Shown one piece after another: positions 9,458 through 47,858 of a DNA stretch of 55,170 nucleotides; the stretch's first letter is position 1; each line of letters starts with the position of its first letter. The DNA is taken from positions 1 to 55,170 of the forward strand of contig PAFB01000149.1 in the NCBI GenBank assembly GCA_002700865.1, written 5' to 3'. Both the position numbers and the translations under genes were made by a program. This stretch comes from Rhodospirillaceae bacterium. Lineage in GTDB: Bacteria; Pseudomonadota; Alphaproteobacteria; UBA7985. Below the pieces are notes generated by a model. The model saw only the letters and a list, made by a program, of their open reading frames with translations, was not told where the DNA came from and ran no database searches.

Positions 9458-9599
9458 AATGCCATTTGCTGCGCCTTTGCCGCGCACAGCAAGCGCAAAG
9501 TCACCGCAGCCGCGCCAGGGTGACAGGCACCCTTGCGGGACTTTTGGGACAAACGGCCTAAATCACCGATCTATTAAGCTTTTTTCCGGAGACTGCGCC

Positions 9600-26264: not shown

Positions 26265-27302
26265 TTGGGGCAAAGCGTGACCAACAACTCCGACACGCCA
26301 ATCGACGGCTCGAATAAGCTGTTCGACAATAATCTGCTAGAAGGGCGGCACGTGCCAAGTCCGGGGCTATGGGATGAGATGCGCAGCTTTCTCGCAATTG
26401 CTCGGGCCGGCAGCCTACTCGGCGCCACAGAAACGTTGGGCATATCTCAACCAACGCTTTCACGCCGCTTGATGACGCTGGAAGACCGCCTCGGGCAGCT
26501 GGTGATACGCAAGCCCCATGGGGTCGAACTGACCACCAAGGGGCGAGAGGTTGCGGAACGCATCGCGAAAATCGATCTAGAATTCTCTGACTTGTTTACC
26601 GCCTCGTCTGCGGCGACGTACCGATCCGTGGTCAAGGTCGCGGCAACGGACGGATTGGCGGCATTCTGGCTGGCGCCACATATTCCTGGGCTTCTGCAAC
26701 AAGGGATCCAAGTTAGCCTTGAAATCATCTCGCTGCAGAACATCCCCAACTTGAAAAAGAACGAAGTGGACATCATCGTCGCTTTTCCAGTGCCGGTGCA
26801 AGACGATTTCATCGTTGAGGATCTGGGCCATCTGCACCTGACAACCTTTGCCTCGCTTGAATATATCAAACGCTTTGGCACCCCGACGCGCGACAATCTC
26901 AGCGACCACCGCTTTGTCGGGAATCGTCAATATCTCTCCAGTAGTGATTTCTGGCGAGACTGGGTGGATGTAACCAAGGAAGCCCAATACATCGCCGGAA
27001 CCGATATGAACGTGACCTATGCGACCATGATTAAGTCCGGCCTCGGTCTCGGGCTGCTGGGCAACTATATGAACATGGACCCCTACCTGATCCATGTCGA
27101 TCTGGGGGTTAACATTGGTCACGGGATCCGGATGTTCAGCCTCGAGCAGAAACGCAACTACCCAGAAATTGCGGCTACCAAGCAGTGGATCCGCGGTATT
27201 TTTCGGGGCAACCCCTGGTTCTTGAGCGAAATGATCGTGAACGACGAGGTCAGTGATTATGACCAACGGGTGCGATGGCTCATGAACCACTACTCGACCT
27301 GA
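26265..27302 (+). CDS. LysR-family transcriptional regulator
   Basis: HTH region WDEMRSFLAIARAGSLLGATETLGISQPTLSRRLMTLEDRLGQLVIRKPHGVELT plus an effector domain. The start is uncertain (TTG 26265 or GTG 26277). GC is lower than in the neighbours. Confidence 0.8.
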   Translation: MGQSVTNNSDTPIDGSNKLFDNNLLEGRHVPSPGLWDEMRSFLAIARAGSLLGATETLGISQPTLSRRLMTLEDRLGQLVIRKPHGVELTTKGREVAERIAKIDLEFSDLFTASSAATYRSVVKVAATDGLAAFWLAPHIPGLLQQGIQVSLEIISLQNIPNLKKNEVDIIVAFPVPVQDDFIVEDLGHLHLTTFASLEYIKRFGTPTRDNLSDHRFVGNRQYLSSSDFWRDWVDVTKEAQYIAGTDMNVTYATMIKSGLGLGLLGNYMNMDPYLIHVDLGVNIGHGIRMFSLEQKRNYPEIAATKQWIRGIFRGNPWFLSEMIVNDEVSDYDQRVRWLMNHYST

Positions 27303-27585
27303 GAGACATCCATTCGGTTGCGCAGACGTAGCATTCGAGTCTGCTGTTGCAGGATGTCGTAGGGGTGCGCACTGGACACCCCTTCGAACATCTGACGCTT
27401 GGCCTCTGCCACCCGCGAGAGCGCATCCGCAGCCAGGTCAAGGGCGTGGATGAACTCGAATTCAGCCTCCGGCTCGTCGGCGCTCATTTTTACTTCTGCC
27501 GACATCAGCACATCGAGCATCAAAGCAAGCAACTCAGCCTTATCAATGTCGGACGAAACCGATTTAAGGTTGCGGAGCGTCATGC
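27290..27585 (-). CDS. ORF fragment abutting the symmetry axis (C-terminal >=97 codons of an unknown helical protein)
   Basis: The minus-strand frame stays open from the axis to the stop at 27290 (...MTLRNLKSVSSDIDKAELLALMLDVLMSAEVKMSADEPEAEFEFIHALDLAADALSRVAEAKRQMFEGV...DVSQVE). Codon 27584-27586 is split by the axis. The native 5' end is either lost or at ATG 27583. Confidence 0.4.
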
Positions 27586-27586
27586 G
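27585..27586. other. Symmetry axis of the palindrome (centre of CATGC|GCATG), no unique loop or spacer
   Basis: Sequence 27575-27596 reads gagcgtcatgc|gcatgacgctc. The axis equals the exact midpoint of the window. Confidence 0.95.
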
Positions 27587-27881
27587 CATGACGCTCCGCA
27601 ACCTTAAATCGGTTTCGTCCGACATTGATAAGGCTGAGTTGCTTGCTTTGATGCTCGATGTGCTGATGTCGGCAGAAGTAAAAATGAGCGCCGACGAGCC
27701 GGAGGCTGAATTCGAGTTCATCCACGCCCTTGACCTGGCTGCGGATGCGCTCTCGCGGGTGGCAGAGGCCAAGCGTCAGATGTTCGAAGGGGTGTCCAGT
27801 GCGCACCCCTACGACATCCTGCAACAGCAGACTCGAATGCTACGTCTGCGCAACCGAATGGATGTCTCTCAGGTCGAGTAG
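27586..27881 (+). CDS. Mirror twin of the axis-abutting ORF fragment
   Basis: Exact mirror of 27290..27585(-). Coordinates sum to 55171. Confidence 0.4.
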
Positions 27882-28906
27882 TGGTTCATGAGCCATCGCA
27901 CCCGTTGGTCATAATCACTGACCTCGTCGTTCACGATCATTTCGCTCAAGAACCAGGGGTTGCCCCGAAAAATACCGCGGATCCACTGCTTGGTAGCCGC
28001 AATTTCTGGGTAGTTGCGTTTCTGCTCGAGGCTGAACATCCGGATCCCGTGACCAATGTTAACCCCCAGATCGACATGGATCAGGTAGGGGTCCATGTTC
28101 ATATAGTTGCCCAGCAGCCCGAGACCGAGGCCGGACTTAATCATGGTCGCATAGGTCACGTTCATATCGGTTCCGGCGATGTATTGGGCTTCCTTGGTTA
28201 CATCCACCCAGTCTCGCCAGAAATCACTACTGGAGAGATATTGACGATTCCCGACAAAGCGGTGGTCGCTGAGATTGTCGCGCGTCGGGGTGCCAAAGCG
28301 TTTGATATATTCAAGCGAGGCAAAGGTTGTCAGGTGCAGATGGCCCAGATCCTCAACGATGAAATCGTCTTGCACCGGCACTGGAAAAGCGACGATGATG
28401 TCCACTTCGTTCTTTTTCAAGTTGGGGATGTTCTGCAGCGAGATGATTTCAAGGCTAACTTGGATCCCTTGTTGCAGAAGCCCAGGAATATGTGGCGCCA
28501 GCCAGAATGCCGCCAATCCGTCCGTTGCCGCGACCTTGACCACGGATCGGTACGTCGCCGCAGACGAGGCGGTAAACAAGTCAGAGAATTCTAGATCGAT
28601 TTTCGCGATGCGTTCCGCAACCTCTCGCCCCTTGGTGGTCAGTTCGACCCCATGGGGCTTGCGTATCACCAGCTGCCCGAGGCGGTCTTCCAGCGTCATC
28701 AAGCGGCGTGAAAGCGTTGGTTGAGATATGCCCAACGTTTCTGTGGCGCCGAGTAGGCTGCCGGCCCGAGCAATTGCGAGAAAGCTGCGCATCTCATCCC
28801 ATAGCCCCGGACTTGGCACGTGCCGCCCTTCTAGCAGATTATTGTCGAACAGCTTATTCGAGCCGTCGATTGGCGTGTCGGAGTTGTTGGTCACGCTTTG
28901 CCCCAA
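27869..28906 (-). CDS. LysR-family transcriptional regulator (mirror copy)
   Basis: Exact mirror twin of 26265..27302(+), with an identical 345-aa translation in the ORF track. Confidence 0.8.
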   Translation of the reverse strand: MGQSVTNNSDTPIDGSNKLFDNNLLEGRHVPSPGLWDEMRSFLAIARAGSLLGATETLGISQPTLSRRLMTLEDRLGQLVIRKPHGVELTTKGREVAERIAKIDLEFSDLFTASSAATYRSVVKVAATDGLAAFWLAPHIPGLLQQGIQVSLEIISLQNIPNLKKNEVDIIVAFPVPVQDDFIVEDLGHLHLTTFASLEYIKRFGTPTRDNLSDHRFVGNRQYLSSSDFWRDWVDVTKEAQYIAGTDMNVTYATMIKSGLGLGLLGNYMNMDPYLIHVDLGVNIGHGIRMFSLEQKRNYPEIAATKQWIRGIFRGNPWFLSEMIVNDEVSDYDQRVRWLMNHYST

Positions 28907-29223
28907 AAAATATTATTTAATTAATTTTATTCTACCTAAAACGAACAGCCTGTTGTGGAGGCTACGATAGGTAAAGAAAAGTGGCTCAATGGGGCTGAAC
29001 CCTGATTTCCTGTTCTCACTTTACCCGGTTTTGGGATAATGTTGGTTCTTGGGTCACGTAGAAAAATAAGCGCAGGTATGGGTCTGCGAGGATAATTGGG
29101 TTTGGTTCAGGTGAAGGGGTGCGTCAAATTGTCCTCCAGCCGTGGCGCGAACGGGCAGACCGCAGAGACGACACTGGTCTACCGTCTACCAACCCAAAGC
29201 ATGTTCATGAGGAGCAGGTAAAG

Positions 29224-30309
29224 ATGGAATTCAGCGTACAGTTGTCGTCTGATTACCCAGATAAGGCCTACGGCGGTGATCGGGTCTATCGGGACATGCT
29301 GGAACAAGCAAAGCGTGCCGATGACCTCGGCTTCGATGCCGTGTCAGTGACCGAACACCACCTGGTCAACTGCCTGATGATGCCGGCGCCGCTCACTTTT
29401 GCCGTGAAGATCGCCGCCCACACCCGCCAGATCAAAATCCTGACCAGTGTGGTTGTGTTGCCGCTGCACGACATGCGGACCTATGCCGGCGAGGTCGTCG
29501 TCGCTGACATCTTCTGTGACGGACGGCTGTTCCTCGGGGTTGGTCGCGGTGCCTTTAAGTTTGAGATGGAGCGCCTCGGCGTGCCGATGGAGGAGACCCG
29601 CGAGCGCTTCGACGAAAGCCTCGATGTGCTGCAGGCGCTGTTGCGGGAAGAAGAAGTGAGCTGGGATGGAAAATTCTACCAGTTTGACGCGCTGACCATC
29701 ATGCCGCGTCCGGTTCGTCCGGGTGGCCCGCCCATGATGATGGCGGTGATGAACCCCGAGGGCATTTACGCCTGTACCCGCCGTGGGTTCCACATCCAGA
29801 CGACGCCGTTGTCGGGGAATCACCAGCTGTTGGTGGACCAGGTTGATGCCTTCAACCGTGCCAAGGCCGACATGAATAATGAGGGCGATGCGCTGACGCT
29901 GTCGCTGTCGCGCGTAGCGCACGTCGCAACCTCTGAAGCTGAGCGCACACGAAAAAACCGAGCGGCCTATGACTACTATTGCCGGTTCGACAACATTTAT
30001 CTTGGCCCCGGTCTTGTCGACGCGGGGATGATCCGGCAAATCCCGCGCGCTCAATCAGCCGAGGAATTGGAAAAGAGCCTGCTGATCTGCCGCCCCACTG
30101 AGATGGTTGATCGGCTGGGGCGATATGCGGACCTGGGTATCGATCGAGTGATCCTGAATTTCAATTTTGGCCTTGAGTCTTCAGACACGCTGGAGGCCAT
30201 TCAGTGCTTTGCTGAAGAGGTGATGCCGCACTTCACCGACCGTCCGGCCCGTGTCCGAGACGCGTTCCTGCGCGAGGGCGGAAGACCAAGCCTGCAGGCT
30301 GTTCGCTGA
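29224..30309 (+). CDS. LLM-class flavin-dependent oxidoreductase (mirror copy)
   Basis: Exact mirror twin of 24862..25947(-). ATG at 29224. Identical translation. Confidence 0.85.
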   Translation: MEFSVQLSSDYPDKAYGGDRVYRDMLEQAKRADDLGFDAVSVTEHHLVNCLMMPAPLTFAVKIAAHTRQIKILTSVVVLPLHDMRTYAGEVVVADIFCDGRLFLGVGRGAFKFEMERLGVPMEETRERFDESLDVLQALLREEEVSWDGKFYQFDALTIMPRPVRPGGPPMMMAVMNPEGIYACTRRGFHIQTTPLSGNHQLLVDQVDAFNRAKADMNNEGDALTLSLSRVAHVATSEAERTRKNRAAYDYYCRFDNIYLGPGLVDAGMIRQIPRAQSAEELEKSLLICRPTEMVDRLGRYADLGIDRVILNFNFGLESSDTLEAIQCFAEEVMPHFTDRPARVRDAFLREGGRPSLQAVR

Positions 30310-30362
30310 CGCGATACTTTGGCCGGTCTCATTATCGAAACACGTCAATCAGAGAGGCCTTC

Positions 30363-31142
30363 ATGACTCAGCCGCTGTCTTGCGCGTACTCAGTATCGGG
30401 TGAAGGGCCGCCCTTGATCCTGATCCATGGCATCGGGGCCTCGCGGGCTACTTGGGCGACGGCTCTTCCGCTGTTGGAAGCACACTTTACCGTCATCGCC
30501 TACGATTTGCGCGGGCACGGTAACTCGCCTCAACCGGACGGGCGTTTTGGTCTTGACGCGCTGGTCGCCGACCTCGAACAAGTGCGGGCAGAAGTCGGGG
30601 TGGAGGCAGCACATATCGCCGGGCATTCGCTGGGGGGGATGATCGCGCCGGCCTATGCCCGCGCCTTTCCCGATCGGGTGCTGTCCCTGGGGCTGCTGTC
30701 CACCGCTGCCTTCCGCACGGAACAAGATAGCATCAATGTTAGGGCAGTTGTCTCCGCGATGCGCCAGCAGGGGATTGCTGAGGTGCTGAGCACACTGGCC
30801 AACCGTTGGTTCACGGACGCCTTTATCGCCGAGCATCCCGAAGTGGTTGAGGCCCGTATGGCGCAGGTGATCGGCACTGACCCAGAGGTGTTCCTGAATG
30901 TCTTCGATATCTACGCCGAGACTGAGATGGCCCCCTGGCTGCATGAAATCACAGCGCGGTCACTGGTGCTGACAGGGGAGAATGACGGCGGCTGTCCCCC
31001 ACGGTTAAACCAATTGATTGCCGAGGCCATGCCTTTCGCCACACTGCGGGTGTTGCCTTCGCTGAAGCACTCGATCCTGCTCGAAGGCGGCGCTCAGACC
31101 GGTACCTGCCTGCGCGATTTCCTCCTTGGTTTGGGTCACTGA
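30363..31142 (+). CDS. Alpha/beta-fold hydrolase (mirror copy)
   Basis: Exact mirror twin of 24029..24808(-), with an identical 259-aa translation. Confidence 0.85.
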   Translation: MTQPLSCAYSVSGEGPPLILIHGIGASRATWATALPLLEAHFTVIAYDLRGHGNSPQPDGRFGLDALVADLEQVRAEVGVEAAHIAGHSLGGMIAPAYARAFPDRVLSLGLLSTAAFRTEQDSINVRAVVSAMRQQGIAEVLSTLANRWFTDAFIAEHPEVVEARMAQVIGTDPEVFLNVFDIYAETEMAPWLHEITARSLVLTGENDGGCPPRLNQLIAEAMPFATLRVLPSLKHSILLEGGAQTGTCLRDFLLGLGH

Positions 31143-31177
31143 GGCGCAGGGACGCAGGCAGGGACTCAGGCAGGGAA

Positions 31178-31627
31178 TCAGGCCACTTTGCCCTGGCTTC
31201 GCGTTGAGAACCACACCCAGAAACTCAGAAGTACGGCTGCGCCGGAAATGAATGTCATGACGGTGCCGGGTACGAAGTTCACATAGCCAGCGAAGTCCAG
31301 AAACAGCAGATACCCAATATCGGCGAGGCCACCTACCATGCTAGTGACCCAGATTGCAGTCCGGTTCTGATGCCAGATCATCGCAGCACCGATGATCGTG
31401 GCCACTCCGAACCAGCCCAGGTTCCAACCATGCTGATTGAGGACGCCCTCGACGGCTCCGTGGTAGTCTGCTGCCAGCGCCGCAGGATTAACGCCATCGG
31501 CAACGGCCTGTAGGCCTCCAGTGGCGTCGTTCATCAACACCATTACCCCGGCGAGCACGTGGACCAGCCCCCACAGGAGCCAACGGATTGCCGCCACGCG
31601 GAGCGTATTTTTCTGAACAGAACTCAT
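31178..31627 (-). CDS. Hypothetical polytopic membrane protein (mirror copy)
   Basis: Exact mirror twin of 23544..23993(+). Confidence 0.55.
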   Translation of the reverse strand: MSSVQKNTLRVAAIRWLLWGLVHVLAGVMVLMNDATGGLQAVADGVNPAALAADYHGAVEGVLNQHGWNLGWFGVATIIGAAMIWHQNRTAIWVTSMVGGLADIGYLLFLDFAGYVNFVPGTVMTFISGAAVLLSFWVWFSTRSQGKVA

Positions 31628-31696
31628 CGTGAATTTCCTTGCCATTGTCCCCGCGGGACAGTTGAAATACGTTGACTAAGTCCACTAAGATAGAAA

Positions 31697-31711
31697 GTTG
31701 ATAAAATCAAC
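31697..31711. promoter_or_regulatory. Candidate MarR operator palindrome GTTGAT-AAA-ATCAAC (mirror copy)
   Basis: Exact mirror of 23460..23474. Confidence 0.35.
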
Positions 31712-31714
31712 CAC

Positions 31715-32137
31715 ATGAAAAAGACACGGGATACAGACTTGGCACTGATGTTCGATCGTTTCATGCGATCGATCCACTTCGGGTTGCAGCAAAAAGCCGG
31801 GGACTTTGATCGAAAAAGCGTAGGTCCTGGTGGCGGAATGCTGCTCATGACGCTGGCTGATGCAGGCCAGGTCAGTCAGAATGAACTGAGCAGGCGGATG
31901 GTTCGCGATAAGTCGCAAATGACGCGCATGATCCAGGGGCTCGAAGGCAAGGGATTGGTCAGGCGGGAAAATTCGACCAGTGACGGCAGGGTTGTCATGG
32001 TCTCGCTGACCGCCGAGGGAGAGCAGGTGGTTGAAGAGCTGCTTGAAGCGGTGGCCGATGTAATTGGCGACCTGCTTGCACCAATTTCAGCAAATGAGAC
32101 GCAGCTGCTGAAACAGCTTCTCAGCCGGATTGTATGA
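31715..32137 (+). CDS. MarR-family transcriptional regulator (mirror copy)
   Basis: Exact mirror twin of 23034..23456(-), with an identical 140-aa translation. Confidence 0.85.
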   Translation: MKKTRDTDLALMFDRFMRSIHFGLQQKAGDFDRKSVGPGGGMLLMTLADAGQVSQNELSRRMVRDKSQMTRMIQGLEGKGLVRRENSTSDGRVVMVSLTAEGEQVVEELLEAVADVIGDLLAPISANETQLLKQLLSRIV

Positions 32138-32167
32138 TCGGCGAGGCCAAAGACGAGGTGAGTTAGC

Positions 32168-33337
32168 CTAGATCAGAACACCGTCGAGGCTTGCATCGTC
32201 AAAGCCGCTAAAACGGTTGTCCGACAACCCAAACCAACCGGCGAGCAGACGCTGATAAACCGCGCGATAGTCCAACGTGTATTTCAAATCGCCATCTTCG
32301 AGGTCTTCCAGATCCGGGTGTCGCCCAAACAGCCCCCCGCGAACCCCGCCGCCGAGAAGCAAGTGCGGCGCCGCCGTACCATGGTCAGTGCCGTTGGAAT
32401 AGTTCTCCGTCGCTCGCCGACCAAACTCGCTATAGGTCAGGATCAGCGTCTGGTCCCAGTGCCCCGATTGCTTCAGCGCCGCCCGAAGGCCCGCCAGCGA
32501 CCGTCCCAGATCACGTAGCAGTCGCTCATGATCACCGCGCTGATTTTCATGCGTATCAAAGCCGCCGATTTTCATCTTGAGCACCGGTGCATCCACCCCT
32601 GCCCGAATTAGGGTCGCAGCGAGGGCCGCTTGTCGTCCCAATTCGCCGCCGTCGATGCGCACGTGACGGGCCATCCCAGTCTGCTTGATCTTGGTGCTGA
32701 TTTGTCCCATGGCGCTGTCGAGCGCGTTGCCCCGGTCGAGCAACATTGAGAGGGCGGGGTTGGCACTGTCGGTGGTTAAGCCGCCCAGACCCGCGTTGGT
32801 TGCAGAAAGTGTCTGTAGATGATGCAGCGAGGTGAAGGACAGCCACAACCCGCTCGATGAAGCGAAGATACCCATGCCGCCATCGAGGCTGATCCCATGC
32901 GCATCGAAGCCATTACCCATGGTCTCCACGTCTTCGGTGAGCCAGCCACTGCGGCCTGCACGGTTGCCGTCACCACCGGTTTCCCAAAGCGCTATGGACT
33001 TGAAGTGGGAGCGGTTCTGCTCAGGGTAGCCCAGCCCTTGAAGCACAGCCAATTCTCCTGCCTGCCAGGCCGGACCAAGGTCCGCCAGTGCATTGTTGAG
33101 CCCCAATTGGTCGTCAAGCGTTATCAGATCCCCGCGGTCAAGCGCCACCGAGGGGCGGATCGCGCGATAGCGGTCGTTGGCCCAGGGTACTACGGTGTTC
33201 AGGCCGTCGTTAGCGCCGGACAATTCGACAAGGATGAGGCGCCGGCCTGAGCGCCCGGCCGCCTGCGCCAGCTCGATCGGGGCTAACGGCAGGCTAAGAC
33301 CAGCGACCAGAGAACTCAGAACTTTGCGGCGATCCAT
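32168..33337 (-). CDS. DUF1501-domain protein (mirror copy)
   Basis: Exact mirror twin of 21834..23003(+). Confidence 0.85.
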   Translation of the reverse strand: MDRRKVLSSLVAGLSLPLAPIELAQAAGRSGRRLILVELSGANDGLNTVVPWANDRYRAIRPSVALDRGDLITLDDQLGLNNALADLGPAWQAGELAVLQGLGYPEQNRSHFKSIALWETGGDGNRAGRSGWLTEDVETMGNGFDAHGISLDGGMGIFASSSGLWLSFTSLHHLQTLSATNAGLGGLTTDSANPALSMLLDRGNALDSAMGQISTKIKQTGMARHVRIDGGELGRQAALAATLIRAGVDAPVLKMKIGGFDTHENQRGDHERLLRDLGRSLAGLRAALKQSGHWDQTLILTYSEFGRRATENYSNGTDHGTAAPHLLLGGGVRGGLFGRHPDLEDLEDGDLKYTLDYRAVYQRLLAGWFGLSDNRFSGFDDASLDGVLI

Positions 33338-33352
33338 ACCGTGATTTTCCAC

Positions 33353-35971
33353 TTACTTGAGTTGATAAACCGGGTCGATGATCAGGTCGCTGAAACCGAA
33401 ACCGGAGCTCAGCGGCCGCGATGGTCGCCCGGCGAGGGTGATTTCTACCAGTGCGTCTCCCTCGAAGCGTTCAGCCCCGGACGCGCTGCCTAGCCACTCG
33501 ACCCGTTCATCGGGCATGCCAAGCAGCATAACCGCTCCCGACGCTTCTTGCGACATCATCGCTGACATCATCGAACCGCTATTCTGAGCCATGGGCTCTA
33601 TCAGCGGAACGGGGTTACTAAGTTCCTTTGAATAGCGTGTGCGCGGCAGGGCATCAGTGATCTTGGCAAGGATAGGATCCCAGCTGCTGCCGACCCGGTC
33701 CTGCCCGCGCCGACGCCAGTTCCTGCCGTCTTTCATGGTGTCGAACAGTGTAGGCATGGCGGACCATAGCCCGTGCACCAGCTTACGGTGGTCCTCGTCG
33801 AGTTGATCGTACTGTCCACGCTGGTCCACGTCACCGCCAGGCCAGAGCAGATATTCGACACGTTTTTCGCCTGAATTGAATTCCTTGAAGGTGGTAGATG
33901 GCCATTGCCCGTAAAAACAGTCAGGCCTGCAATTACTTTCACGAATGTCGAGCAGCAGTTCGCGACGACCATTGCGACGGTGTTCCACCAGTTCAAGCCG
34001 CAGTGCATCGTAGTGCAGATGGTTCATGCGTACGTCCATGAGCGAGATCGACAGGCTGTTCCAACTGCGCGTACGGTCCAGCGCGCGCCCCCAGTCAAAA
34101 GCAACGCGTCCAATGACGAGGCGGTCCTGTCGGTCTGGGTTCAGCGCCGAAGTCGCCAGATCTTCGCCTGAACCGCCCATAGGCTCAGGTTCGAGCGTCT
34201 GGGCAACGCGCAGTTGCAGTTCACCGGAGCAGTAAAAATTGCCCGGTGGGTCGTCATTGTTCGACCCTCGACAGCCGGGTTTCTGCAGTCCATCGCTGGC
34301 AAGGTAGAGTTGATCGTCGAAGCGTAGCCAGTCGATAAACAGGTTCCGGTCGCCCCCGGAGCTTCCGCCTGGGCCGCAGCAATGATCATTGTAGAACCCG
34401 ACGCTGAACCAGTCAGGAGGGTCGAGGTCTTCGGGGTATACCAGCGTATCGACCTGCCAGTTTAGGTCCGCGAGGCTATCGATCCGGCCCAGTCGGCCGG
34501 TGTCGATACCACCCGAGGCCTCAAATACCTCTGATCGCCAGATTGGGATGTCTCTGCCATCTTCTCTGGTCTTGTAGCCTCGGATCACAATAGTTGGTGG
34601 GCCTTCGAAGTCCTCCGCACCGTATCGCAAGCTGAGCGGCATTCCTGCCAACGGAGTCATCATCCCGTCCGCGGCAAGTCCGTCTGGGGTGCCCGCCGGA
34701 TCCGATGCGGCCGAAGGGGCCGGCCCGTCGTAAAGTGCAGCAAGCTGTTGCAGTGCTTCGTTACGGCTCAGCAGTCGCGCGGGCGTGATCCAGTCAGCCC
34801 CGCCAGGCCAGCCCGCGACGTTAGGTGCTTCGAACAAGTGCTGGCCAAGACTTTCAAGCTGTACGCTCAACGTGGGCCACCACTGGGGCAGTCGCCCGCC
34901 GCTGCGAAGTGTTCCGATCATCAGGTCAACCGGCGATTTGACGATAGTGCCGCGATAACGGGGATCCCAGAACTCCTCTGACGAAAGCATAATTCGCACG
35001 AGCGCACTGATGTCATAGTCGGTCTTGCGCCAGTCTGTCGCAAGCGCTTCGATGGCTGCTGGATCTTTTTCGAATTCGGAAATATACGCTTGCCAGAAGG
35101 TTCCTACGATAAACGCAGCCGCCGCATCGGTCTCCAGCAGGATATCGATTACGTCATCGGCATCGAAGCGTCCGATCTTGCCGAGTATCCGCTTCGAGCC
35201 CTCATCGTGATCCCAGGGCTGGAACTGAAATTCAAAATCCCGCAGATCATTATAGGAGTAACCGGTCAAAGCACGGGCGACTTCCTTGACGTCCATTTCG
35301 GTGTACTGGCCTTCGCCGAGGACAAACAGCTCCAGTAATTCTCGGGCGAGGTTCTCGTTTGGCTGTTCCTCGCGGCTATTGTTGTTGTCGAGATAGTTCA
35401 GCATGGCCGCATCACGAACAACGGCCCGAAGCAGGTCTCTGAAACGGCCGTGTCCCTTCTCCCGTAGCATCATGTGCTGATTGTAGAGTGCGTGGACCTC
35501 CTCATTCAGACTGCCATAGGCGGATACAAAGTGGTTGGACCAGATGAGCAGCAGTCGCTCTCCGGCTGGGGACGACGTTGACAGCATCTCCCGGATCCAC
35601 CATCGGCGAAGCTCACCCATCTCCTTGTCGCGCTCGACCCGGAAAGCTTGTCTGTCCTGTTCCTCGTAGTCGTTTAACATCCAGTAGTGGACATGCTCAC
35701 CGTCGCTGAGGCTGATCGGGGGTTCGTTGAAAGGTGCAGAGACATCAAGCTGGTCGACCATGGCGTCGATAGCCTGCGCCCGGGATAGACCCAACAGCGC
35801 ATTTATTTCATCGGGATGCGCGCCCAGCCCAGCGCGTTCGAGCAAATGCCGGGCATCTCCGGGGGTCATTCGCATCTGTAGATGCTGTGCTGAGGCCAGC
35901 GCCGGCCATACCGATACCATCAATCCGAGGATCGCTGCTTTTGCCATGCGCCAGAAAATTTGACATGTCAC
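33353..35971 (-). CDS. DUF1800-domain protein with long C-terminal extension (mirror copy)
   Basis: Exact mirror twin of 19200..21818(+), with an identical 872-aa translation. Confidence 0.8.
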   Translation of the reverse strand: MTCQIFWRMAKAAILGLMVSVWPALASAQHLQMRMTPGDARHLLERAGLGAHPDEINALLGLSRAQAIDAMVDQLDVSAPFNEPPISLSDGEHVHYWMLNDYEEQDRQAFRVERDKEMGELRRWWIREMLSTSSPAGERLLLIWSNHFVSAYGSLNEEVHALYNQHMMLREKGHGRFRDLLRAVVRDAAMLNYLDNNNSREEQPNENLARELLELFVLGEGQYTEMDVKEVARALTGYSYNDLRDFEFQFQPWDHDEGSKRILGKIGRFDADDVIDILLETDAAAAFIVGTFWQAYISEFEKDPAAIEALATDWRKTDYDISALVRIMLSSEEFWDPRYRGTIVKSPVDLMIGTLRSGGRLPQWWPTLSVQLESLGQHLFEAPNVAGWPGGADWITPARLLSRNEALQQLAALYDGPAPSAASDPAGTPDGLAADGMMTPLAGMPLSLRYGAEDFEGPPTIVIRGYKTREDGRDIPIWRSEVFEASGGIDTGRLGRIDSLADLNWQVDTLVYPEDLDPPDWFSVGFYNDHCCGPGGSSGGDRNLFIDWLRFDDQLYLASDGLQKPGCRGSNNDDPPGNFYCSGELQLRVAQTLEPEPMGGSGEDLATSALNPDRQDRLVIGRVAFDWGRALDRTRSWNSLSISLMDVRMNHLHYDALRLELVEHRRNGRRELLLDIRESNCRPDCFYGQWPSTTFKEFNSGEKRVEYLLWPGGDVDQRGQYDQLDEDHRKLVHGLWSAMPTLFDTMKDGRNWRRRGQDRVGSSWDPILAKITDALPRTRYSKELSNPVPLIEPMAQNSGSMMSAMMSQEASGAVMLLGMPDERVEWLGSASGAERFEGDALVEITLAGRPSRPLSSGFGFSDLIIDPVYQLK

Positions 35972-36012
35972 CGCACTATCTTCCGGTGGTTTGCTTCAAA
36001 CTCTGAACCGAT

Positions 36013-36021
36013 ATTCTATCA
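36013..36021 (-). promoter_or_regulatory. Extended -10-like element (mirror copy)
   Basis: Exact mirror of 19150..19158. Confidence 0.2.
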
Positions 36022-36189
36022 TAAGGCCGGCTCTGCAGGCGATAATTAGAAATAGTAGCTAATATCTATCAAATGAACAGGAACACGATGTTTCAAACAA
36101 TTCCACTGCTGCCGGCACCCGCGCTGCTGCCAAGTCGTGAACCAGCACAGCGAGATCAGCGGAGAGCAGCACTTTGCCATAGACTGAGC

Positions 36190-36219
36190 TGGCCCCGGTC
36201 TCGCTTTGAAACGGGGCCA
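36190..36219 (-). terminator. Hairpin downstream of ohr (mirror copy)
   Basis: Exact mirror of 18952..18981. Confidence 0.3.
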
Positions 36220-36263
36220 CTTTTAGATCTTTACGGCACGGATGGAACCAGCGTTGCTGGGCT

Positions 36264-36686
36264 TTAGTCGAGGGTGGTTTTAGCCTTCAGTCGGACGCTG
36301 ATCGTCTCACTCAGAGAGTTGGAGAAGGGACAGAGTTTGTGGGTTGTCGCCATCAGCCGATCTGCTGTTTCTTGATCCATGCCTGGCAGCATCGCGGTGA
36401 TGTCCACGTCAAAACGCAACCGCTTGTTGTCGTCGGAGTTTCCTAGCCCAACGGCAATTTGTGTGTGCCAGTCGTCACCAAGTTCGATTTCCTTGAACTT
36501 TGCAGCTTCCTTCATCGCGTTATCAAAGCAAGCGGCATAGCCGAGCGTAAACAGCTCTTCGGGGGTCAGGCCCTCTTTTTTGGCACCTGGTAGAACTGTG
36601 TCGATGGAAAAGGTGCCGTTATCGAGACTCGTGCTGCCCGAGCGGCCTCCGCGGGCTGTAGCGGCGGTCTTGTGGTAAATGTTCAT
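36264..36686 (-). CDS. ohr: Organic hydroperoxide resistance protein Ohr (mirror copy)
   Basis: Exact mirror twin of 18485..18907(+). Confidence 0.85.
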   Translation of the reverse strand: MNIYHKTAATARGGRSGSTSLDNGTFSIDTVLPGAKKEGLTPEELFTLGYAACFDNAMKEAAKFKEIELGDDWHTQIAVGLGNSDDNKRLRFDVDITAMLPGMDQETADRLMATTHKLCPFSNSLSETISVRLKAKTTLD

Positions 36687-36788
36687 GGATCCGGACTTTT
36701 CGAATTAAGTATCATTTTTCGCGTCGAGCCTTGGGCTTAGTCACTTCCCGCGATCATCTCAACCGCATTCTGGTATTTTGGACGGTGG

Positions 36789-37481
36789 TTAGATAAGGCG
36801 TACTTCGAGCGTCCCGATCCCTTCAATGGTCCCGACGAGTGCGTCGCCCGCAACAACTGGCCCCACACCAGCGGGGGTGCCGGTGAAGATCAGATCCCCG
36901 GGCATTAGCGTGTAGAGCGTGGAAAGGTCAGCAATGATTTCCGCTAACGACCAGACCTGGTCGGCAAGGTTGCCGCTCTGCCGCAGGTCGCCGTTTACGT
37001 GCAGGCTGATGGCGCCCTGATCTGGCCGAGCACCCGCGCCGGGCTGGCACAGTGCCGAACACAGGCCGCTGAATTCGAAGTCTTTGCCCGTGTCCCAACT
37101 GCGGCGCTTGTCTTTGCTGTCCTGCTGCAAGTCGCGTCGGGTCATGTCCAGCCCGACGGCGTAACCAAAGATATGGTCAAGCGCCGTATCGATGCTGATC
37201 CCGCTTCCGCCCTTTGCCAGAGCAGCAACCAGCTCGATCTCGTGATGATAATTGTCAGTGCGTGGGGGCACCGGCACGGGATCTTTACCGTTTGCAAAGG
37301 CCACGTGCTGGGGCGATTTGAGGAAATAGAAGGGTGCTTCCCGATCAACGACGTTGCCCATTTCGGCCGCGTGCGCAGCGTAGTTGCGTCCCACGCAAAA
37401 GGCGCGATGGATTGGAAAGAGCTGGTTGCTGCCGAGAATTGGCAGGGCGGAAATTGGGGGTGGGGTCACGGCGTAGCTCAT
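36789..37481 (-). CDS. FAH-family protein (mirror copy)
   Basis: Exact mirror twin of 17690..18382(+). Confidence 0.85.
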   Translation of the reverse strand: MSYAVTPPPISALPILGSNQLFPIHRAFCVGRNYAAHAAEMGNVVDREAPFYFLKSPQHVAFANGKDPVPVPPRTDNYHHEIELVAALAKGGSGISIDTALDHIFGYAVGLDMTRRDLQQDSKDKRRSWDTGKDFEFSGLCSALCQPGAGARPDQGAISLHVNGDLRQSGNLADQVWSLAEIIADLSTLYTLMPGDLIFTGTPAGVGPVVAGDALVGTIEGIGTLEVRLI

Positions 37482-37543
37482 GACCCCGGGTATGACATGC
37501 CAGTGGCTGTGGTTCCAATGCTTTCAGAACATCGGTGGAGCCC

Positions 37544-38134
37544 TCAACGCCGGGAAAAGGCAATGGCATCCTCTAGCCGATCATCCCCCCAGAACAGCTC
37601 GTCACCAACCACGAACGAGGGCGCACCAAAAACGCCAGCGGCCTTGGCTGCTTCGGTATTCGCGCGGTAGCCAGCCTCGGCTTCCGGCGTGAGGGCGGCG
37701 GCTGTCACGTCGTCAAACGATCGGCCAAGACCCTGGCAGACCTGATGGATGTTTGCATCGCTACCGGCCTCTAACCCGTCGAGGAACCAGGCGCGATACG
37801 TGGCTTCGAAATAGTCGATGTACCAGCCCTGTTGCTCGGCGATAATGCCAACGTGGTTGGCGCGGTCAAAGTCCTGCAGCGGGTAGGGGGCGGGCACCTT
37901 CGGCGATGGCAAGCCGTAGCCCGCAGCCCGGCGTTCGATATCCCGCCACATGTAGCGGACCTTCGCCTCCTTTTCCGGCGGAAATGGAATGTTGTTCATC
38001 TCTCGCATGATGGCCCTGACACTGAACGGGCGGAATTCCACCGTGATACCTTCGCGATCGATCACGTCCCGCAGTCGAAGCGCGGTAAGAAATGTGTAGG
38101 TGCTGCCAATCGATAGGTAAGCGGTGATTTTCAC
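37544..38134 (-). CDS. HCCA isomerase / DsbA-like family protein (mirror copy)
   Basis: Exact mirror twin of 17037..17627(+). Confidence 0.75.
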   Translation of the reverse strand: MKITAYLSIGSTYTFLTALRLRDVIDREGITVEFRPFSVRAIMREMNNIPFPPEKEAKVRYMWRDIERRAAGYGLPSPKVPAPYPLQDFDRANHVGIIAEQQGWYIDYFEATYRAWFLDGLEAGSDANIHQVCQGLGRSFDDVTAAALTPEAEAGYRANTEAAKAAGVFGAPSFVVGDELFWGDDRLEDAIAFSRR

Positions 38135-38426
38135 AATGCGGCTCCACACTCATGCAAACATCAAAAGGCACTATACACTAATTCCCAAAGAGCACGCGAG
38201 GTTTCAGACGCATCCGGTGCTGAGCCGGACCGCAACGGAGCGGGTGGGTGTCATCGGATATTCCATGGGCGGCTATGGTGTTTTGGCGGCACAAGGTGGA
38301 TTGCTTGCACCCGCAGCGCTGGGGAACGTGCCAAAGAGGTCTTCGCCGAGGAGCTCAGCGCCTACACAACAGCCTCCGCAGAGGCTCACCCTGCCCGCAG
38401 GGCGCCGATCAAGACCTCGTGTCTGA
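38124..38426 (+). pseudogene. Possible alpha/beta-hydrolase remnant (mirror copy)
   Basis: Exact mirror of 16745..17047(-). Confidence 0.3.
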
Positions 38427-38475
38427 GCAAGGTGCAGCCTTGCCTCACCGTGTGAAGCGGCGGCATAAGCAATTC

Positions 38476-39165
38476 ATGATGAACTGCTTGCACTTTCTCC
38501 TGCTCCTGCCCGGCCTTCGTACTGTGCTCATGGCGCTGATGTCGTTGATCTTCGCTGGCCTGGCATTGGCCGAGACTCAGGCGTTAGATGCGTCGCCAAC
38601 GTCTATAGTCACGGAGCAGGCAGAAGCCCAGGGGGACGCGCTGTACGCGCTGCCTGATGGCTTTGTCGCCCGGAACCCTGATGGCGCGATCGTGGTCGAG
38701 GAATTCCTCGATTATTACTGTACCTTCTGCAAGGTATCGAGCCCCGAAGTCGACGCGCTCGCTGCCGAAGACACAGACATCCGATTGGTGATCCGCGAAC
38801 TGCCTATCCTGACGCCGCAGTCGCTGCCGCTGGCGCAGATCGCCCTCGCAGCATCGTATCAGGGTTTATATCTGGAGGTTCATAAGGCGATGATGACCGC
38901 GCGAACGGTGCCGTCGCCCGAGGCTGCACTGTCCATTGTCGCGTCACTGGGGGGCGACCCAGATCAGATTCTTATCGACATGCAGCGCCCTGAAATCGGT
39001 CTGCACATCCGTCACAATTTGCAGCGTGCACTCGCTGGCGGCATTCGATCCACGCCCGGTTTCATTGTACAAGGCCTCCCCTTCGCCGGCTACATCGGAA
39101 AGGACGCAATGGCGGAACTGTTTGAGATGCTCAAGGAACCCACGAGCGCTGAAACCAAAAACTGA
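38476..39165 (+). CDS. DsbA-family thiol:disulfide oxidoreductase (mirror copy)
   Basis: Exact mirror twin of 16006..16695(-). ATG at 38476. Confidence 0.7.
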   Translation: MMNCLHFLLLLPGLRTVLMALMSLIFAGLALAETQALDASPTSIVTEQAEAQGDALYALPDGFVARNPDGAIVVEEFLDYYCTFCKVSSPEVDALAAEDTDIRLVIRELPILTPQSLPLAQIALAASYQGLYLEVHKAMMTARTVPSPEAALSIVASLGGDPDQILIDMQRPEIGLHIRHNLQRALAGGIRSTPGFIVQGLPFAGYIGKDAMAELFEMLKEPTSAETKN

Positions 39166-39242
39166 GCTTGTAGACGACCCACAAACCGTCTCCCTGAGGA
39201 GGCTTTCGTCGTTCTCGTGGTCTCTGGGGTCTCCGGGTGAGG

Positions 39243-41066
39243 TCAGCTGTTTTCTTCGAGCACATCGGTGATCTCGAAACGAGTCACGTCCACCAGTCCC
39301 AAATCTGAAATTCTCAGCTCCGGAATCACAACCAACGCCAGCAAAGAGTGCTGCATGAAGGCGTTGTTGAGGCTGCAACCACAGGCCGCCATAGCGTCGA
39401 CCATAGCCTGCGCCTTTTCAGCAACCTCGTGCGCAGGCCGGTCGGACATCAGCCCCGCGATGGGCAGCTCGACCAGCGCGATTTCGGCGCCGTCTTTCCA
39501 CACCGTGACCCCGCCGCCGACCTCACCCAGCCGGTTCGCCGCCGCCGCCATCATGTCCCGGTCAGTGCCGACAACAATCATATGGTGGCTGTCGTGGGCG
39601 ACGGTCGACGCAATGGCCATGGAGCCCTGATAGCCGAAGCCGGAGACAAAGCCGTTGGTGAGCCCGCCAGTGGCGCGGTGGCGCTCGACCAGTGCGATCT
39701 GGCAGACCTCGCCGGTTGCCTGCACCCGACCCTCTGTGACGGGCAGTTCGAAGCTCAGCGCTCGTGTCGGTGCTTGATTTTCCACAACGCCAATTACCCG
39801 GGCGCGAACAGCATTGGCACCTGCGGGCGCGGCAATGCTGAAGTCTTTTGCTTGCAGGGTTTTGCCCAGTCGCACAGTCTCGCGTGCGCTTTGCGGCCAA
39901 TCGTAGTGAGGACAGTCGACGAGCCGCTGGCCATCTGTAGCGACCCGGACGCCGCGGGCAAAAACGGTCTCGATGGGCAGGCTGTACAAGTCGCTGCTCA
40001 GGATCATATCGGCACGGCGGCCGGGTGCAATGCTGCCTAGTTCTCGCTCTAGCCCGAAATGGCCGGCGGTGTTGATCGTTGCCATTTGGAGCGCCACCAG
40101 CGGGTCGCAACCGCAGTCGATCGCATGACGCACCACCCGGTTCATATGGCCGTCGTTGACCAGTGTGCCTGAATGGCAGTCGTCGGTGCACAGGATGAAA
40201 TTGCGCGGGTCCAGACCCTTTTCCGTGATCGCCGTGATCTGACTTTCGACATCGTACCAAGCCGAACCAAGCCGCAGCATGGCGCGCATCCCTTGCCGCA
40301 CACGAGCAATCGCGTCGGCCTCTGCCGTACCTTCGTGATCGTCGGCCGGGCCACCAGCGACATAGGCGTGGAAGGCCGTTCCCAAATCTGGCGAGGCGTA
40401 GTGCCCGCCGACGGTCTTACCCGCGCGCATAGTTTCAGCTATTTCCGCGAGCATTTTCGGATCGCCGTTGATAACGCCGGGGAAGTTCATCATCTCCCCC
40501 AACCCGATGATTCCAGGCCAGGCCATGGCCTCGACTACGTCGGCTGGGCTGATTTCAAATCCCGTCGTCTCTAGCCCCGGGGCTGAGGGCGCGCAGGACG
40601 GCATCTGAGTAAAAACGTTCATGGGCTGCATCAAGGCTTCGTCGTGCATCATCCTCACGCCTTCCAGTCCCAGAACGTTGGCAATCTCATGCGGGTCAGT
40701 AAAAATGGTCGTGGTTCCGTGCGGCATGACGGCTGCGCAGAACTCCGCCGGGGTCAACATGCCGCTTTCAATATGCATGTGCCCGTCACAAAAACCTGGG
40801 ATGATATAGCGTCCGTCGGCGTCGATCACCTCTGTCTCAGCACCGATGGTGTGCGCCGCGTCTAGGCCAACGTAGGCGAAGCGGCCAGCGGCAACCGCAA
40901 CCTCCCAGCCGTCGAGCACTTCGCGGCTCTGCACGTTGACCACCTTGCCACCACGGATAACGCAGTCTGCAGGTTGGCGTCCGGCGGCGACGGAGACGAG
41001 GCGAGAAGCGCTTTCGGCCCAAGTCGAGAAGGGTGCAGCCGCGGTCCCTGAGGTGAAGGTGGTCAT
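39243..41066 (-). CDS. ade: Adenine deaminase (mirror copy)
   Basis: Exact mirror twin of 14105..15928(+). Confidence 0.85.
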   Translation of the reverse strand: MTTFTSGTAAAPFSTWAESASRLVSVAAGRQPADCVIRGGKVVNVQSREVLDGWEVAVAAGRFAYVGLDAAHTIGAETEVIDADGRYIIPGFCDGHMHIESGMLTPAEFCAAVMPHGTTTIFTDPHEIANVLGLEGVRMMHDEALMQPMNVFTQMPSCAPSAPGLETTGFEISPADVVEAMAWPGIIGLGEMMNFPGVINGDPKMLAEIAETMRAGKTVGGHYASPDLGTAFHAYVAGGPADDHEGTAEADAIARVRQGMRAMLRLGSAWYDVESQITAITEKGLDPRNFILCTDDCHSGTLVNDGHMNRVVRHAIDCGCDPLVALQMATINTAGHFGLERELGSIAPGRRADMILSSDLYSLPIETVFARGVRVATDGQRLVDCPHYDWPQSARETVRLGKTLQAKDFSIAAPAGANAVRARVIGVVENQAPTRALSFELPVTEGRVQATGEVCQIALVERHRATGGLTNGFVSGFGYQGSMAIASTVAHDSHHMIVVGTDRDMMAAAANRLGEVGGGVTVWKDGAEIALVELPIAGLMSDRPAHEVAEKAQAMVDAMAACGCSLNNAFMQHSLLALVVIPELRISDLGLVDVTRFEITDVLEENS

Positions 41067-41326
41067 GCTTCGGGGTTCCCTGTTCCAGCGCGCCTCTACC
41101 GGGCGCGACCGCCAGCAGAATAGCCCTGCTCCACCTCCGCTGTCACGCCGCCGCCCAAGGCTACAACTTCGCCCAGGGTCATACGTGTCCGTACAGTTCG
41201 ATTGCAGCGATTCCGGCGGCGATCACCACCGCACCCACGAAGCAGCCATCAGCCGATGGTCTGACCGCGCTTGTTCATGCGTTGAACGGCCGGGCTCTGT
41301 TCGACATGCCCGCCGTCGCTGCCGTC

Positions 41327-42514
41327 CTAGTTATCGCCCTTGGCCTTGGCCTTACGCGGATCAAAGAAGGGTCGTTCGACCACCTCGGCGGGGCAGTCGC
41401 CCTGCGCGCGCTGGACCCGCAGTTTAGTGCCCAAACCGGCGTGATCGGTGCTAACGAAGGCCAGTGCGATGTTTTGCTCCAACCGCGGGGAATACACAGC
41501 CGACGTAACCCGCCCCACGGTCCCGCCCGTGGTCGCGGTGACAGTCCAGAATGTTGTGTTCGGTCCGGTCAGGGGTTCGGCGTCGAGACGGAGCCCCACC
41601 TGCACGCGATCAACCCCGGCGTCACGGATTTTCAACAACGCCTCACGACCGATGAAGTCATGGCCACCGTCGAGTTCAACCAGCCGGTCCAGTCCCAGCT
41701 CGAAGGGGTTGACCGTGATATCGGCGTCGGCCTGGTAGGACAGCATTCCGCCTTCGATCCGCCGGATGGACGACGTGTGCCCGGGCTGCAGGCCGAAGGG
41801 CTGGCCCGCGGCCATGATCGCTTCCCACAGGGCGTCCCCCTGCGCGCTGTCCTGAAGATAGATTTCGTAACCCAGCTCGCTCGACCAACCGGTGCGGGAA
41901 ACGACGACCGGAATGCCGTGAAGCTCCAATTCGCGCAGCCAGTAGTAGCGCAGGTCGCGGATGTCATCACCAAACAACGCAGCCATAATCTCTCCCGACT
42001 TCGGTCCCTGAAGTTGCAGGGGGGAGACGTCGGGCTCGTGGATATGGACGTCGAGGCCGCTGTTCACTGCCACCCCCTGCGCCCACAGCAGCACGTCGCT
42101 GTCGGCCAGTGACAGCCAGAATCGGTCCTCCGCCAGACGTAGCAGCACGGGGTCGTTGATCAGGCAGCCCGCGGCGTTGGTAATCAGCACGTACTTGCAC
42201 TGGCCCACAGCAAGTTTGGATAGATCACGCGGGGTCAGCCGCTGGACAAAGGCGGCGGCGTCTGGGCCGCTGATCTCTACCTGCCGCTCGACCGCTACGT
42301 CGCAGAGGATGGCGTCGTTTATCAGGTTCCAGAAATTCTGCTCCGGATCACCAAAATCACGCGGAATGTACATGTGATTATAGACGGAGAACCCTGTTGC
42401 GCCCCAGCGCACGGTCGCGTCGAAGTAGGGTGATTTGCGGATCTGGGTGCCAAAGCCAAAGTCCTTGGTAACGGTGCCAGAAGGCATGCCCGCGCGGGCA
42501 GCGGTGTCGGTCAT
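41327..42514 (-). CDS. dmdA: GcvT-family aminomethyltransferase, DmdA-like (mirror copy)
   Basis: Exact mirror twin of 12657..13844(+). Confidence 0.6.
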   Translation of the reverse strand: MTDTAARAGMPSGTVTKDFGFGTQIRKSPYFDATVRWGATGFSVYNHMYIPRDFGDPEQNFWNLINDAILCDVAVERQVEISGPDAAAFVQRLTPRDLSKLAVGQCKYVLITNAAGCLINDPVLLRLAEDRFWLSLADSDVLLWAQGVAVNSGLDVHIHEPDVSPLQLQGPKSGEIMAALFGDDIRDLRYYWLRELELHGIPVVVSRTGWSSELGYEIYLQDSAQGDALWEAIMAAGQPFGLQPGHTSSIRRIEGGMLSYQADADITVNPFELGLDRLVELDGGHDFIGREALLKIRDAGVDRVQVGLRLDAEPLTGPNTTFWTVTATTGGTVGRVTSAVYSPRLEQNIALAFVSTDHAGLGTKLRVQRAQGDCPAEVVERPFFDPRKAKAKGDN

Positions 42515-42649
42515 GAAAGGGGTTCCTGCGATCGGGGGGGAAGGGGGTCTTCAAACCTCCCCTGCCAAATATCCGGATTGAATGCGAAAGCAAGCGCAGA
42601 CAGGTCAGGTTTTTCACCATGACGGGCAAGGCCGCTATTGTGCCGACGA

Positions 42650-44230
42650 TTAGAACAAGCCTGCATAGTCTTCCCGCAGCGCTTTTTTCTTCACCTTGCC
42701 CATCGCGTTGCGGGGCAGGGCGTCGACCAGAACCACTTGCCGGGGTTGCTTGAACCGTGCCAACCGGTCGGCAAGGAAGGTGGCGACGCTTTCCGAGGAT
42801 ATCGCCCCCGCGCCCGCGCCCGAGGCACCGACCGCTTCACCACCTGCTTCCGGCACGATCACCGCTATGACGGCCTCGCCGAGGTCCGGGTGGGGCAGGC
42901 CAATGACGCAGCTCTCCCGCACTCCCGGTATTTGGTCTAATTGCTCCTCCACCTCTTTGGGGTAGACGTTGAAGCCGCCGCTGATGATCAAGTCCTTGGC
43001 GCGGCCGACGATGGTGATGCGTCCGTCTTCGGCCATGGTTGCCATATCGCCGGTGATGAAGTGGCCATCGGTGCGGAATTCTTCTGCCGTCTTCTCGGGC
43101 ATATTCCAGTAGCCAGCGAAGACGTTTGGGCCAGCGATTTCTAAAATACCGATTTCTCCTGCTGGCAGCGTCGCGCCGTCGCGGTCAGTGACCCGGGCAT
43201 GGATACCGGGCAGGGCGTAGCCCACTGTGCCGGCAATGCGTTCCCCGTCGTCATAGGGGTTGGAGGTGATCATCCCCGCCTCGGTCATGCCGTAGCGTTC
43301 GAGGATCGGCTGTCCGGTCAGGGCTTCGAACTGGTCGAAGGTCTCGGGCAGCAGTGGCGCGGAGCCGGAGATGAACACCCGCACGCCGTCGCTAACGCTG
43401 CGGTCGAATCCGGGCGTGTTCAACAGTCGGACATAGAAGGTTGGAACACCCATGAGCACGCTGGCTCCGGGCAACTCGGCCACCAGTCGCGCGGGGTCGA
43501 AGGCGTCGAGAAAGATGACTTCCGAGCCGTTGAGCAGGGCGCAGTGCAGCGCAACGAAGAGGCCGTGGACATGAAATACGGGCAGGGCGTGGAGCAATAC
43601 GTCTCCCGGCACCCAACCCCAGTATTCGTGCAGCACAAGCCCGTTCGAGATCAGGTTGCCGTGGGTGATCATCGCACCCTTTGATCGCCCTGTGGTGCCC
43701 GAGGTGTAAAGGATCGCTGCGAGGTCATCGCGTTCGCGGTGAATGATGTCGTCGGAAGGTGGCAAGGCCGCTGCGGCTTCGGGCAGGCTACCGCTTCCAT
43801 CCATGCCCAGCGTCAGGCAATGGCCAATGCCAGCCTCCCCTGCCAATGCGGCGAGGTCATGGGTGGCGTCCGCGTCAGGGTCGCAGACCAGCACTTGCGG
43901 TTTGGCATCATCGAGGAAGTAAGCCAATTCAGTCGGAGTGTAGGCCGGGTTGAGTGGAACGAACACCGCACCAACGCGCAGACAGGCGAGGTAGAGCAGC
44001 ACGAATTCCATCGATTTACCGACCTGGACAACCACCCGATCACCGGGTGAGACCCCGCAGGCGGCCAGCGCGGCGGCGTATTGCCCGGTTTCCCCATCTA
44101 GGTCGCCGTAGGCAAGGCTACCCCGATCCGCGCGCAGGAACAGGGCAGACGGGTCAGTGGGGCGCCTGTCTCGGAAGCAGGTGTAGAGATTCTGGTCGAG
44201 CATGGCGGATCCGGCGCTGTGGTTGCTCAA
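42650..44230 (-). CDS. MatB-like AMP-dependent acyl-CoA synthetase (mirror copy)
   Basis: Exact mirror twin of 10941..12521(+). Confidence 0.75.
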   Translation of the reverse strand: MSNHSAGSAMLDQNLYTCFRDRRPTDPSALFLRADRGSLAYGDLDGETGQYAAALAACGVSPGDRVVVQVGKSMEFVLLYLACLRVGAVFVPLNPAYTPTELAYFLDDAKPQVLVCDPDADATHDLAALAGEAGIGHCLTLGMDGSGSLPEAAAALPPSDDIIHRERDDLAAILYTSGTTGRSKGAMITHGNLISNGLVLHEYWGWVPGDVLLHALPVFHVHGLFVALHCALLNGSEVIFLDAFDPARLVAELPGASVLMGVPTFYVRLLNTPGFDRSVSDGVRVFISGSAPLLPETFDQFEALTGQPILERYGMTEAGMITSNPYDDGERIAGTVGYALPGIHARVTDRDGATLPAGEIGILEIAGPNVFAGYWNMPEKTAEEFRTDGHFITGDMATMAEDGRITIVGRAKDLIISGGFNVYPKEVEEQLDQIPGVRESCVIGLPHPDLGEAVIAVIVPEAGGEAVGASGAGAGAISSESVATFLADRLARFKQPRQVVLVDALPRNAMGKVKKKALREDYAGLF

Positions 44231-44263
44231 TCACCCTCCCCGCGCGCGGCGGCGGCGTCAAGC

Positions 44264-45571: not shown

Positions 45572-45713
45572 GGCGCAGTCTCCGGAAAAAAGCTTAATAG
45601 ATCGGTGATTTAGGCCGTTTGTCCCAAAAGTCCCGCAAGGGTGCCTGTCACCCTGGCGCGGCTGCGGTGACTTTGCGCTTGCTGTGCGCGGCAAAGGCGC
45701 AGCAAATGGCATT

Positions 45714-47815: not shown

Positions 47816-47858
47816 GCGGCGGTATGAGACGGAGTTATCGCACATCTAGCGGTCACCG

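Follow-up and report, generated by a model that had tools for sequence, protein, structure and literature searches.

Contigs that read identically on both strands raise the question of whether they represent linear replicons with hairpin ends, rearranged chromosomes or errors of assembly. Here we address this question for C13, a contig of the metagenome-assembled genome (MAG) G000, which comprises 160 contigs and 2.32 Mb at 73% completeness and 4.3% contamination. The window, that is the whole stretch of DNA analyzed here with its 55,170 nucleotides, is the complete contig. Self-comparison revealed that C13 equals its own reverse complement over its entire span, and an inverted-repeat search resolved it into two arms (Table 1) that are 100% complementary with a spacer of 0 nt and zero divergence. 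A perfect palindrome of 27.6 kb is far beyond anything that chance could produce. The center of the contig reads GAGCGTCATGC|GCATGACGCTC. C13 is the sole palindromic contig among the 160 and also the longest, and half of it (27.6 kb) falls within the usual size range of contigs in this MAG. We consider it very probable that the palindrome is a fold-back artefact of assembly and that one arm of 27,585 bp is real. The mirror-image contig is neither a telomere nor another biological structure, and its real arm is single-copy chromosome of an uncultured marine alphaproteobacterium belonging to the species-level lineage of GCA_965662775.1. An earlier note on this DNA had described the palindrome, reading frames that cross its axis and an outer gene cut after 46 codons; recomputation confirmed all of these observations.

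Table 1 Coordinates of the arms, the axis and the genes at the axis and at the outer ends of the window.
Feature	Position	Strand	Basis
Arm A, the single real 27.6-kb chromosomal segment	1..27585		Inverted repeat I1; colinear with G004:C3:11800-52646
Arm B, exact reverse complement of arm A, phantom duplicate	27586..55170		Self-comparison
Axis, fold-back junction	27585..27586		Native similarity ends exactly there (alignment A1, 18 alignments)
FAD-binding monooxygenase/cNMP-binding gene, first 46 codons, cut at contig end	1..138	-	Pfam NAD_binding_8/FAD_binding_3
Mirror of the cut FAD-binding gene	55033-55170	+	Mirror symmetry
LysR-family regulator, convergent with the 97-aa gene, whose 3' end it overlaps	26265..27302	+	Pfam; native loci arranged alike
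Complete conserved hypothetical gene, 97 aa, arm A copy	27290..27583	-	Homologue starts and gene calls elsewhere
Mirror copy of the 97-aa gene, arm B	27588..27881	+	Homologue starts and gene calls elsewhere
Remnant of the upstream 189-aa GNAT-like gene, GCA and stop TGA (mirror 27580-27585, minus strand)	27586..27591	+	Gene overlap in L005; alignment A1; Pfam Acetyltransf_1
Artefactual 160-codon ORF, antisense of one copy of the 97-aa gene plus the other copy	27399..27881	+	ORF list
Twin of the artefactual 160-codon ORF	27290..27772	-	ORF list

Evidence against a biological fold comes from other assemblies of the same DNA. We compared arm B with 18 native records, namely 16 contigs from independent marine assemblies, G008 (GCA_965662775.1) and LXNH01006038.1, which together derive from Tara and other marine assemblies and include two NCBI MAGs and one JGI contig. 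Using megablast we obtained identities of 99.4-99.9%, with alignments that start at query base 1 in 18/18 records and extend to the limit of each native locus. The native junction CGAGATCGCTGCATGACGCTCCGCAACC, tested as a 28-mer, is present in all 18 records, while a 24-mer spanning the fold-back junction is present in none of them, and the fold-back conclusion of the earlier note is upheld. A 36-mer across the fold-back was found neither in the GTDB-representative genome collection (185,579 species) nor in JGI metagenome contigs; a native 40-mer was found in CBFIIW010000017.1, from the MAG 'Alphaproteobacteria bacterium Co_bin_828' (G008), and also matched LXNH01006038.1. Contig C17 of G008 matches positions 23270-27585 of the window at 99-100% and goes on beyond the axis.

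Alignment of 11 native loci to the center placed the break at single-base resolution. Identity begins at the first base right of the axis, and left of it there is none, the native loci reading ...GATTACGAGATCGCT and the window ...GCGGAGCGTCATGC, so that ...GATCGCT|GCATGA in the native DNA stands against ...GTCATGC|GCATGA in the contig. The 18 records run through the axis for distances ranging from 240 bases (L034) to about 10 kb. The genes recovered there encode the GNAT-like protein followed by SBP_bac_3, Impact_N, EamA, LysR, an aminopeptidase and a Na/H exchanger, which supplies the native sequence beyond nt 27585 that the earlier note had proposed to seek in related genomes. The native site ...GATTACGAGATCGCT|GCATGACGCTCC... 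is not palindromic, and no inverted repeat is centered at or near the axis, in agreement with the earlier view that the contig does not turn at a dedicated site. Where independent assemblies contain this DNA, it runs on with no fold-back. Within the MAG itself, no other contig carries the native continuation at high identity; the nearest sequence is an orthologous locus on C142 that is 67-80% identical. As a separate observation, L013:13320-13582 (HARO18-2 scaffold_1337) contains about 230 extra or duplicated bases, relative to the window and the other loci, in the stretch from the alpha/beta-hydrolase gene to the next gene.

Two nucleotides separate the axis from the start codon of a 97-aa ORF, which had been read as the fragment of a gene cut by the axis. 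Its homologues do not support that reading. The product has five homologue clusters, all opening with MT[LV]RN at the identical methionine, and the gene was called on 47 other contigs, where it encodes either the identical protein or a variant of 98% identity. These 47 are the contigs that we read among the 28 + 109 blocks in which the collection index lists the protein. Because all homologues share its ATG and gene callers elsewhere give 97 aa, the 97-aa ORF is a complete small gene, and the truncated one is its upstream GNAT-like neighbor. This neighbor, a 189-aa gene, precedes the 97-aa gene with a four-base overlap (ATGA) in 16/16 loci listed; in L005, for example, the 189-aa gene at 9435..10004 overlaps the 97-aa gene at 10001..10294. 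It is called GNAT-like from a weak Pfam match to Acetyltransf_1, whose score of 20.7 bits equals the cut-off. The axis separates the last two sense codons of this gene (GCT|GCA TGA), so that 188 codons are missing from the contig and the last codon and the stop are left. The earlier note had named a native start at ATG 27583, together with a conserved palindromic site at this position in relatives, as what would refute its reading: the native start is indeed there, the palindromic site is not.

Two 160-codon ORFs cross the axis as products of the fold. Their N-terminal 62 codons, which make up the part beyond the axis (MASATRESASAARSRAWMNSNSASGSS...), read the other, mirror copy of the 97-aa gene in antisense. 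The artefactual 160-aa product, used as a probe for other fold-back contigs, retrieved no record elsewhere. The 97-aa protein has no match in Pfam, NCBIfam or PDB sequences and is so far confined to close relatives, where its gene appears translationally coupled (ATGA) to the GNAT-like gene, e.g. in L014:8585-9444. Versions from sister lineages (P0003-P0006 set) are 110 aa long with a different C-terminal tail, and the same set includes one 80-aa form with an internal deletion.

The arm is ordinary chromosomal DNA, as the earlier note had concluded for the 27.6-kb unit. A Pfam scan of its 26 ORFs returned metabolic, transport and regulatory or housekeeping families alone: LysR (twice), MarR, HpcH aldolase, DNA methylase, DMSP_lyase, M24 peptidase, LysE, DUF3422, AMP-ligase, GcvT, adenine deaminase, DSBA (twice), FAH, OsmC, DUF1800/DUF1501, alpha/beta hydrolase and luciferase-like monooxygenase. 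Among the 26 ORFs Pfam detected neither resolvases nor replication initiators, partition proteins, transposases or integrases, and the arm contains no tRNA genes and no matches to Rfam families. The relative G004 carries the entire arm colinearly on its contig C3 (11800-52646) at 70-89% identity, and this similarity reaches past both ends of the arm. The gene cut at the outer ends, of the FAD/NAD Rossmann type, is at least 546 aa long in another relative (G001:C25), with the domains FAD_binding_3 and cNMP_binding.

Several features of the arm deserve mention in their own right. Pfam matches alone point to a cluster related to DMSP metabolism at positions 6593-8735 and 12657-13844, in which an M24 peptidase/creatinase-type gene (DddP-like) is directly followed by a PF16867 DMSP_lyase cupin, and a predicted GcvT-family gene (DmdA-like) lies 4 kb from this pair. 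Between 2400 and 6200 the G+C content is 0.55-0.56, compared with about 0.60-0.65 around it. Three hypothetical proteins, secreted or membrane-bound and lacking Pfam matches, are encoded there together with an orphan N6/N4 DNA methylase (4673-6202); since relatives of the genus carry this stretch at 70-76% identity, it is not a recent insertion. The outermost 1.3 kb (1-1304, mirror 53867-55170) is 98% identical to G001:C25, which belongs to a different species in the genus, and includes perfectly matching stretches of up to 451 nt, while the adjoining DNA is 84-87% identical. It spans the start of the FAD-binding gene, the HpcH/HpaI aldolase and about 0.4 kb beyond the aldolase, and suggests either recent interspecies exchange or a chimeric join from contig merging.

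The MAG bears the marks of a particular kind of assembly. Among 12 distinct exact overlaps between contig ends, six are 31, 41, 61, 71, 71 and 91 nt long; the shortest contig measures 7,539 bp, and Ns occur exclusively in runs of 1-3. The MAG thus looks like a multi-k de Bruijn assembly of short reads followed by consensus merging. Overlaps, length floor and Ns fit a published pipeline that combined MEGAHIT 1.0.3 in meta-sensitive mode, CD-HIT-EST and Minimus2 and binned contigs from 7.5 kb upwards (PMC5507172), in which the MAG may have originated. A sheared library insert, to which the earlier note had likened the unit, is not applicable to an object that is a short-read MAG contig.

Palindromic contigs have precedents. 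Rahman & Medvedev (2022, PMC9528984) showed that palindromic maximal unitigs arise when the de Bruijn graph contains inverted loops, and that SPAdes and MEGAHIT keep them at full length. C13 resembles their 'lonely inverted loops' in being a self-reverse-complement contig of even length, with no spacer and with both ends at one coordinate. It differs from the error-free case of PMC9528984, in which the turn requires a natural palindrome of k-1 bases, in that the native sequence here is not palindromic at the axis. For Mycobacterium bovis, 81 whole-contig palindromes produced by SPAdes were judged to be errors and removed (PMC9455707). Like these, C13 is one palindrome throughout, with every gene duplicated in reverse complement; unlike these contigs from isolate genomes, it comes from a marine metagenome bin that was probably assembled with MEGAHIT. 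A literature search for 'palindromic contigs' together with MEGAHIT returned nothing specific to that assembler.

How could the fold have arisen? The de Bruijn graph built from the short reads of the source sample may have had a dead end 2 nt upstream of the start codon of the 97-aa gene. One or more chimeric fold-back reads, each consisting of a strand continued by its own complement, would then have contributed junction k-mers and created an inverted loop. The contig walk would pass through the loop, retrace the unitig on the opposite strand and end at the node where it had started. A walk that stops at its start node yields a palindrome that is whole-length, even and spacer-less with identical cut points at both ends. 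The outer ends, taken previously to be random breaks, need not be physical at all, as a walk through an inverted loop stops at the same node in both directions; given the exact runs of up to 451 nt shared with G001, a branch point in the metagenome graph is likely there.

Since no natural palindrome exists at the turn, the source of the junction k-mers must lie outside the genome, a fold-back chimeric read being the most plausible one, and the palindrome was probably seeded by such a read at a dead end of the de Bruijn graph. A palindromic read pairs each junction k-mer with its reverse complement, so one read suffices for a canonical count of 2. The 'mercy k-mer' rescue of MEGAHIT favors reads that bridge dead ends. 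Library preparation generates fold-back, or inverted chimeric, reads that join a strand to its own complement, and these would supply the junction k-mers. The snap-back artefacts described so far are known to have their turn at a short inverted repeat; the join here is blunt and lacks microhomology. Other origins of the junction were considered and rejected. Both snap-back priming and sister-strand annealing through a terminal palindrome predict native identity past the axis, and there is none. A natural hairpin or palindrome that could serve as the turning point was not found at the native site, and a chimera from a missed adapter in long reads is ruled out by the short-read hallmarks of the MAG.

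Within the artefact reading, the turn could instead be the work of software alone, if the assembler or the merging step reversed at the dead end with no junction read involved. The axis has no natural palindrome or microhomology, and hairpin-turning snap-back chimeras therefore fit it poorly, which speaks for such a software turn. We nevertheless consider it unlikely, because sequences of 22 or more bases that are missing from the input cannot be created by de Bruijn graphs or by overlap mergers. To our knowledge, no mechanism has been described by which an assembler makes k-mers absent from the input. Sequencing error is excluded as their source, since the junction differs from the native sequence at nearly every base on one side.

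The shape of the contig alone is compatible with a genuine rearrangement, in that a real junction would lead a de Bruijn assembler to a contig of identical shape; by the reasoning of PMC9528984, real and chimeric junction k-mers are equivalent in this respect. A giant palindrome could form in vivo in a sub-population of cells if the chromosome broke 2 nt upstream of the 97-aa gene and the end was capped as a hairpin and replicated, and the product would be exactly a perfect, spacer-less palindrome. Against this stand the native junction in 18/18 other records of the lineage, the absence of the fold-back junction from the public collections searched and the lack of any divergence between the arms. 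An inverted dimer of a chromosome arm would, moreover, be without the remaining chromosome. Long perfect palindromes are also known to be unstable or lethal in bacteria through cleavage by SbcCD. On balance, we hold an in vivo origin to be very improbable.

A hairpin-telomere linear replicon, or the replicated dimer junction of one, in the style of N15-type phage-plasmids, Borrelia or the Agrobacterium linear chromosome, has nothing in its favor beyond perfect symmetry about a central point, and we give it practically no credence. A replicated telomere junction is a perfect palindrome centered on the resolution site, and C13 shares this palindromy about a center with the protelomerase systems N15 telRL/TelN, Klebsiella phage phiKO2 TelK, Borrelia ResT and Agrobacterium TelA. 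Unlike them, it comes with no protelomerase, no conserved palindromic site and no replicon functions, and its relatives run straight through. The search of the rest of the assembly that the earlier note had suggested bore this out: PF16684, the catalytic domain of ResT/TelK, had no match at E<=0.1 in the MAG or in five genus relatives, four of which are 94-98% complete and one (G004) 82%. This absence alone is not proof, the MAG being 73% complete. In addition, the DNA ends at the axis in 0/18 records, the relatives have no palindromic site at the axis position, Pfam detects no replication or partition genes in the arm, and the arm is colinear with part of a large chromosomal contig of a relative (G004:C3). 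Judged by these sequence comparisons, a hairpin-telomere replicon fails every defining feature tested, which agrees with the earlier conclusion that this is not an evolved hairpin telomere.

The importance of the finding is confined to data hygiene and quality control. The phantom arm (27,585 bp with about 26 genes) inflates the size and the gene counts of the MAG, and the mirror duplication creates false paralogues and the false 160-aa ORF. The fold-back also conceals the true neighbor of the 97-aa gene, the GNAT-like gene. Screens for hairpin telomeres, inverted terminal repeats or 'complete' linear elements should remove self-reverse-complement contigs first.

C13 probably is also mis-binned and sits in the bin of a congeneric species. 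We set positions 23270-27585 of the window against the rest of the MAG (C34, C40, C142, C93, C76, C138, C150, C87, C136 and C104). The inner part of C13 (23270-27585) is 99-100% identical to G008, whereas the sampled pieces of C34, C40 and C142 reach at most about 80% identity to that genome and C34 barely matches it. Furthermore, the MAG has its own divergent copies of many arm genes on other contigs (47-88% aa identity), including an orthologous upstream locus on C142. Since doubling the length of a contig halves its apparent read depth, the fold may have misled coverage-based binning of C13. The MAG also contains redundant sequence: C12:1-10579 and C160:2912-13490 are 99.86% identical, and C1 and C51 have 1.6 kb in common at 98.5%. 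Both pairs are probably strain duplicates left by the merging step.
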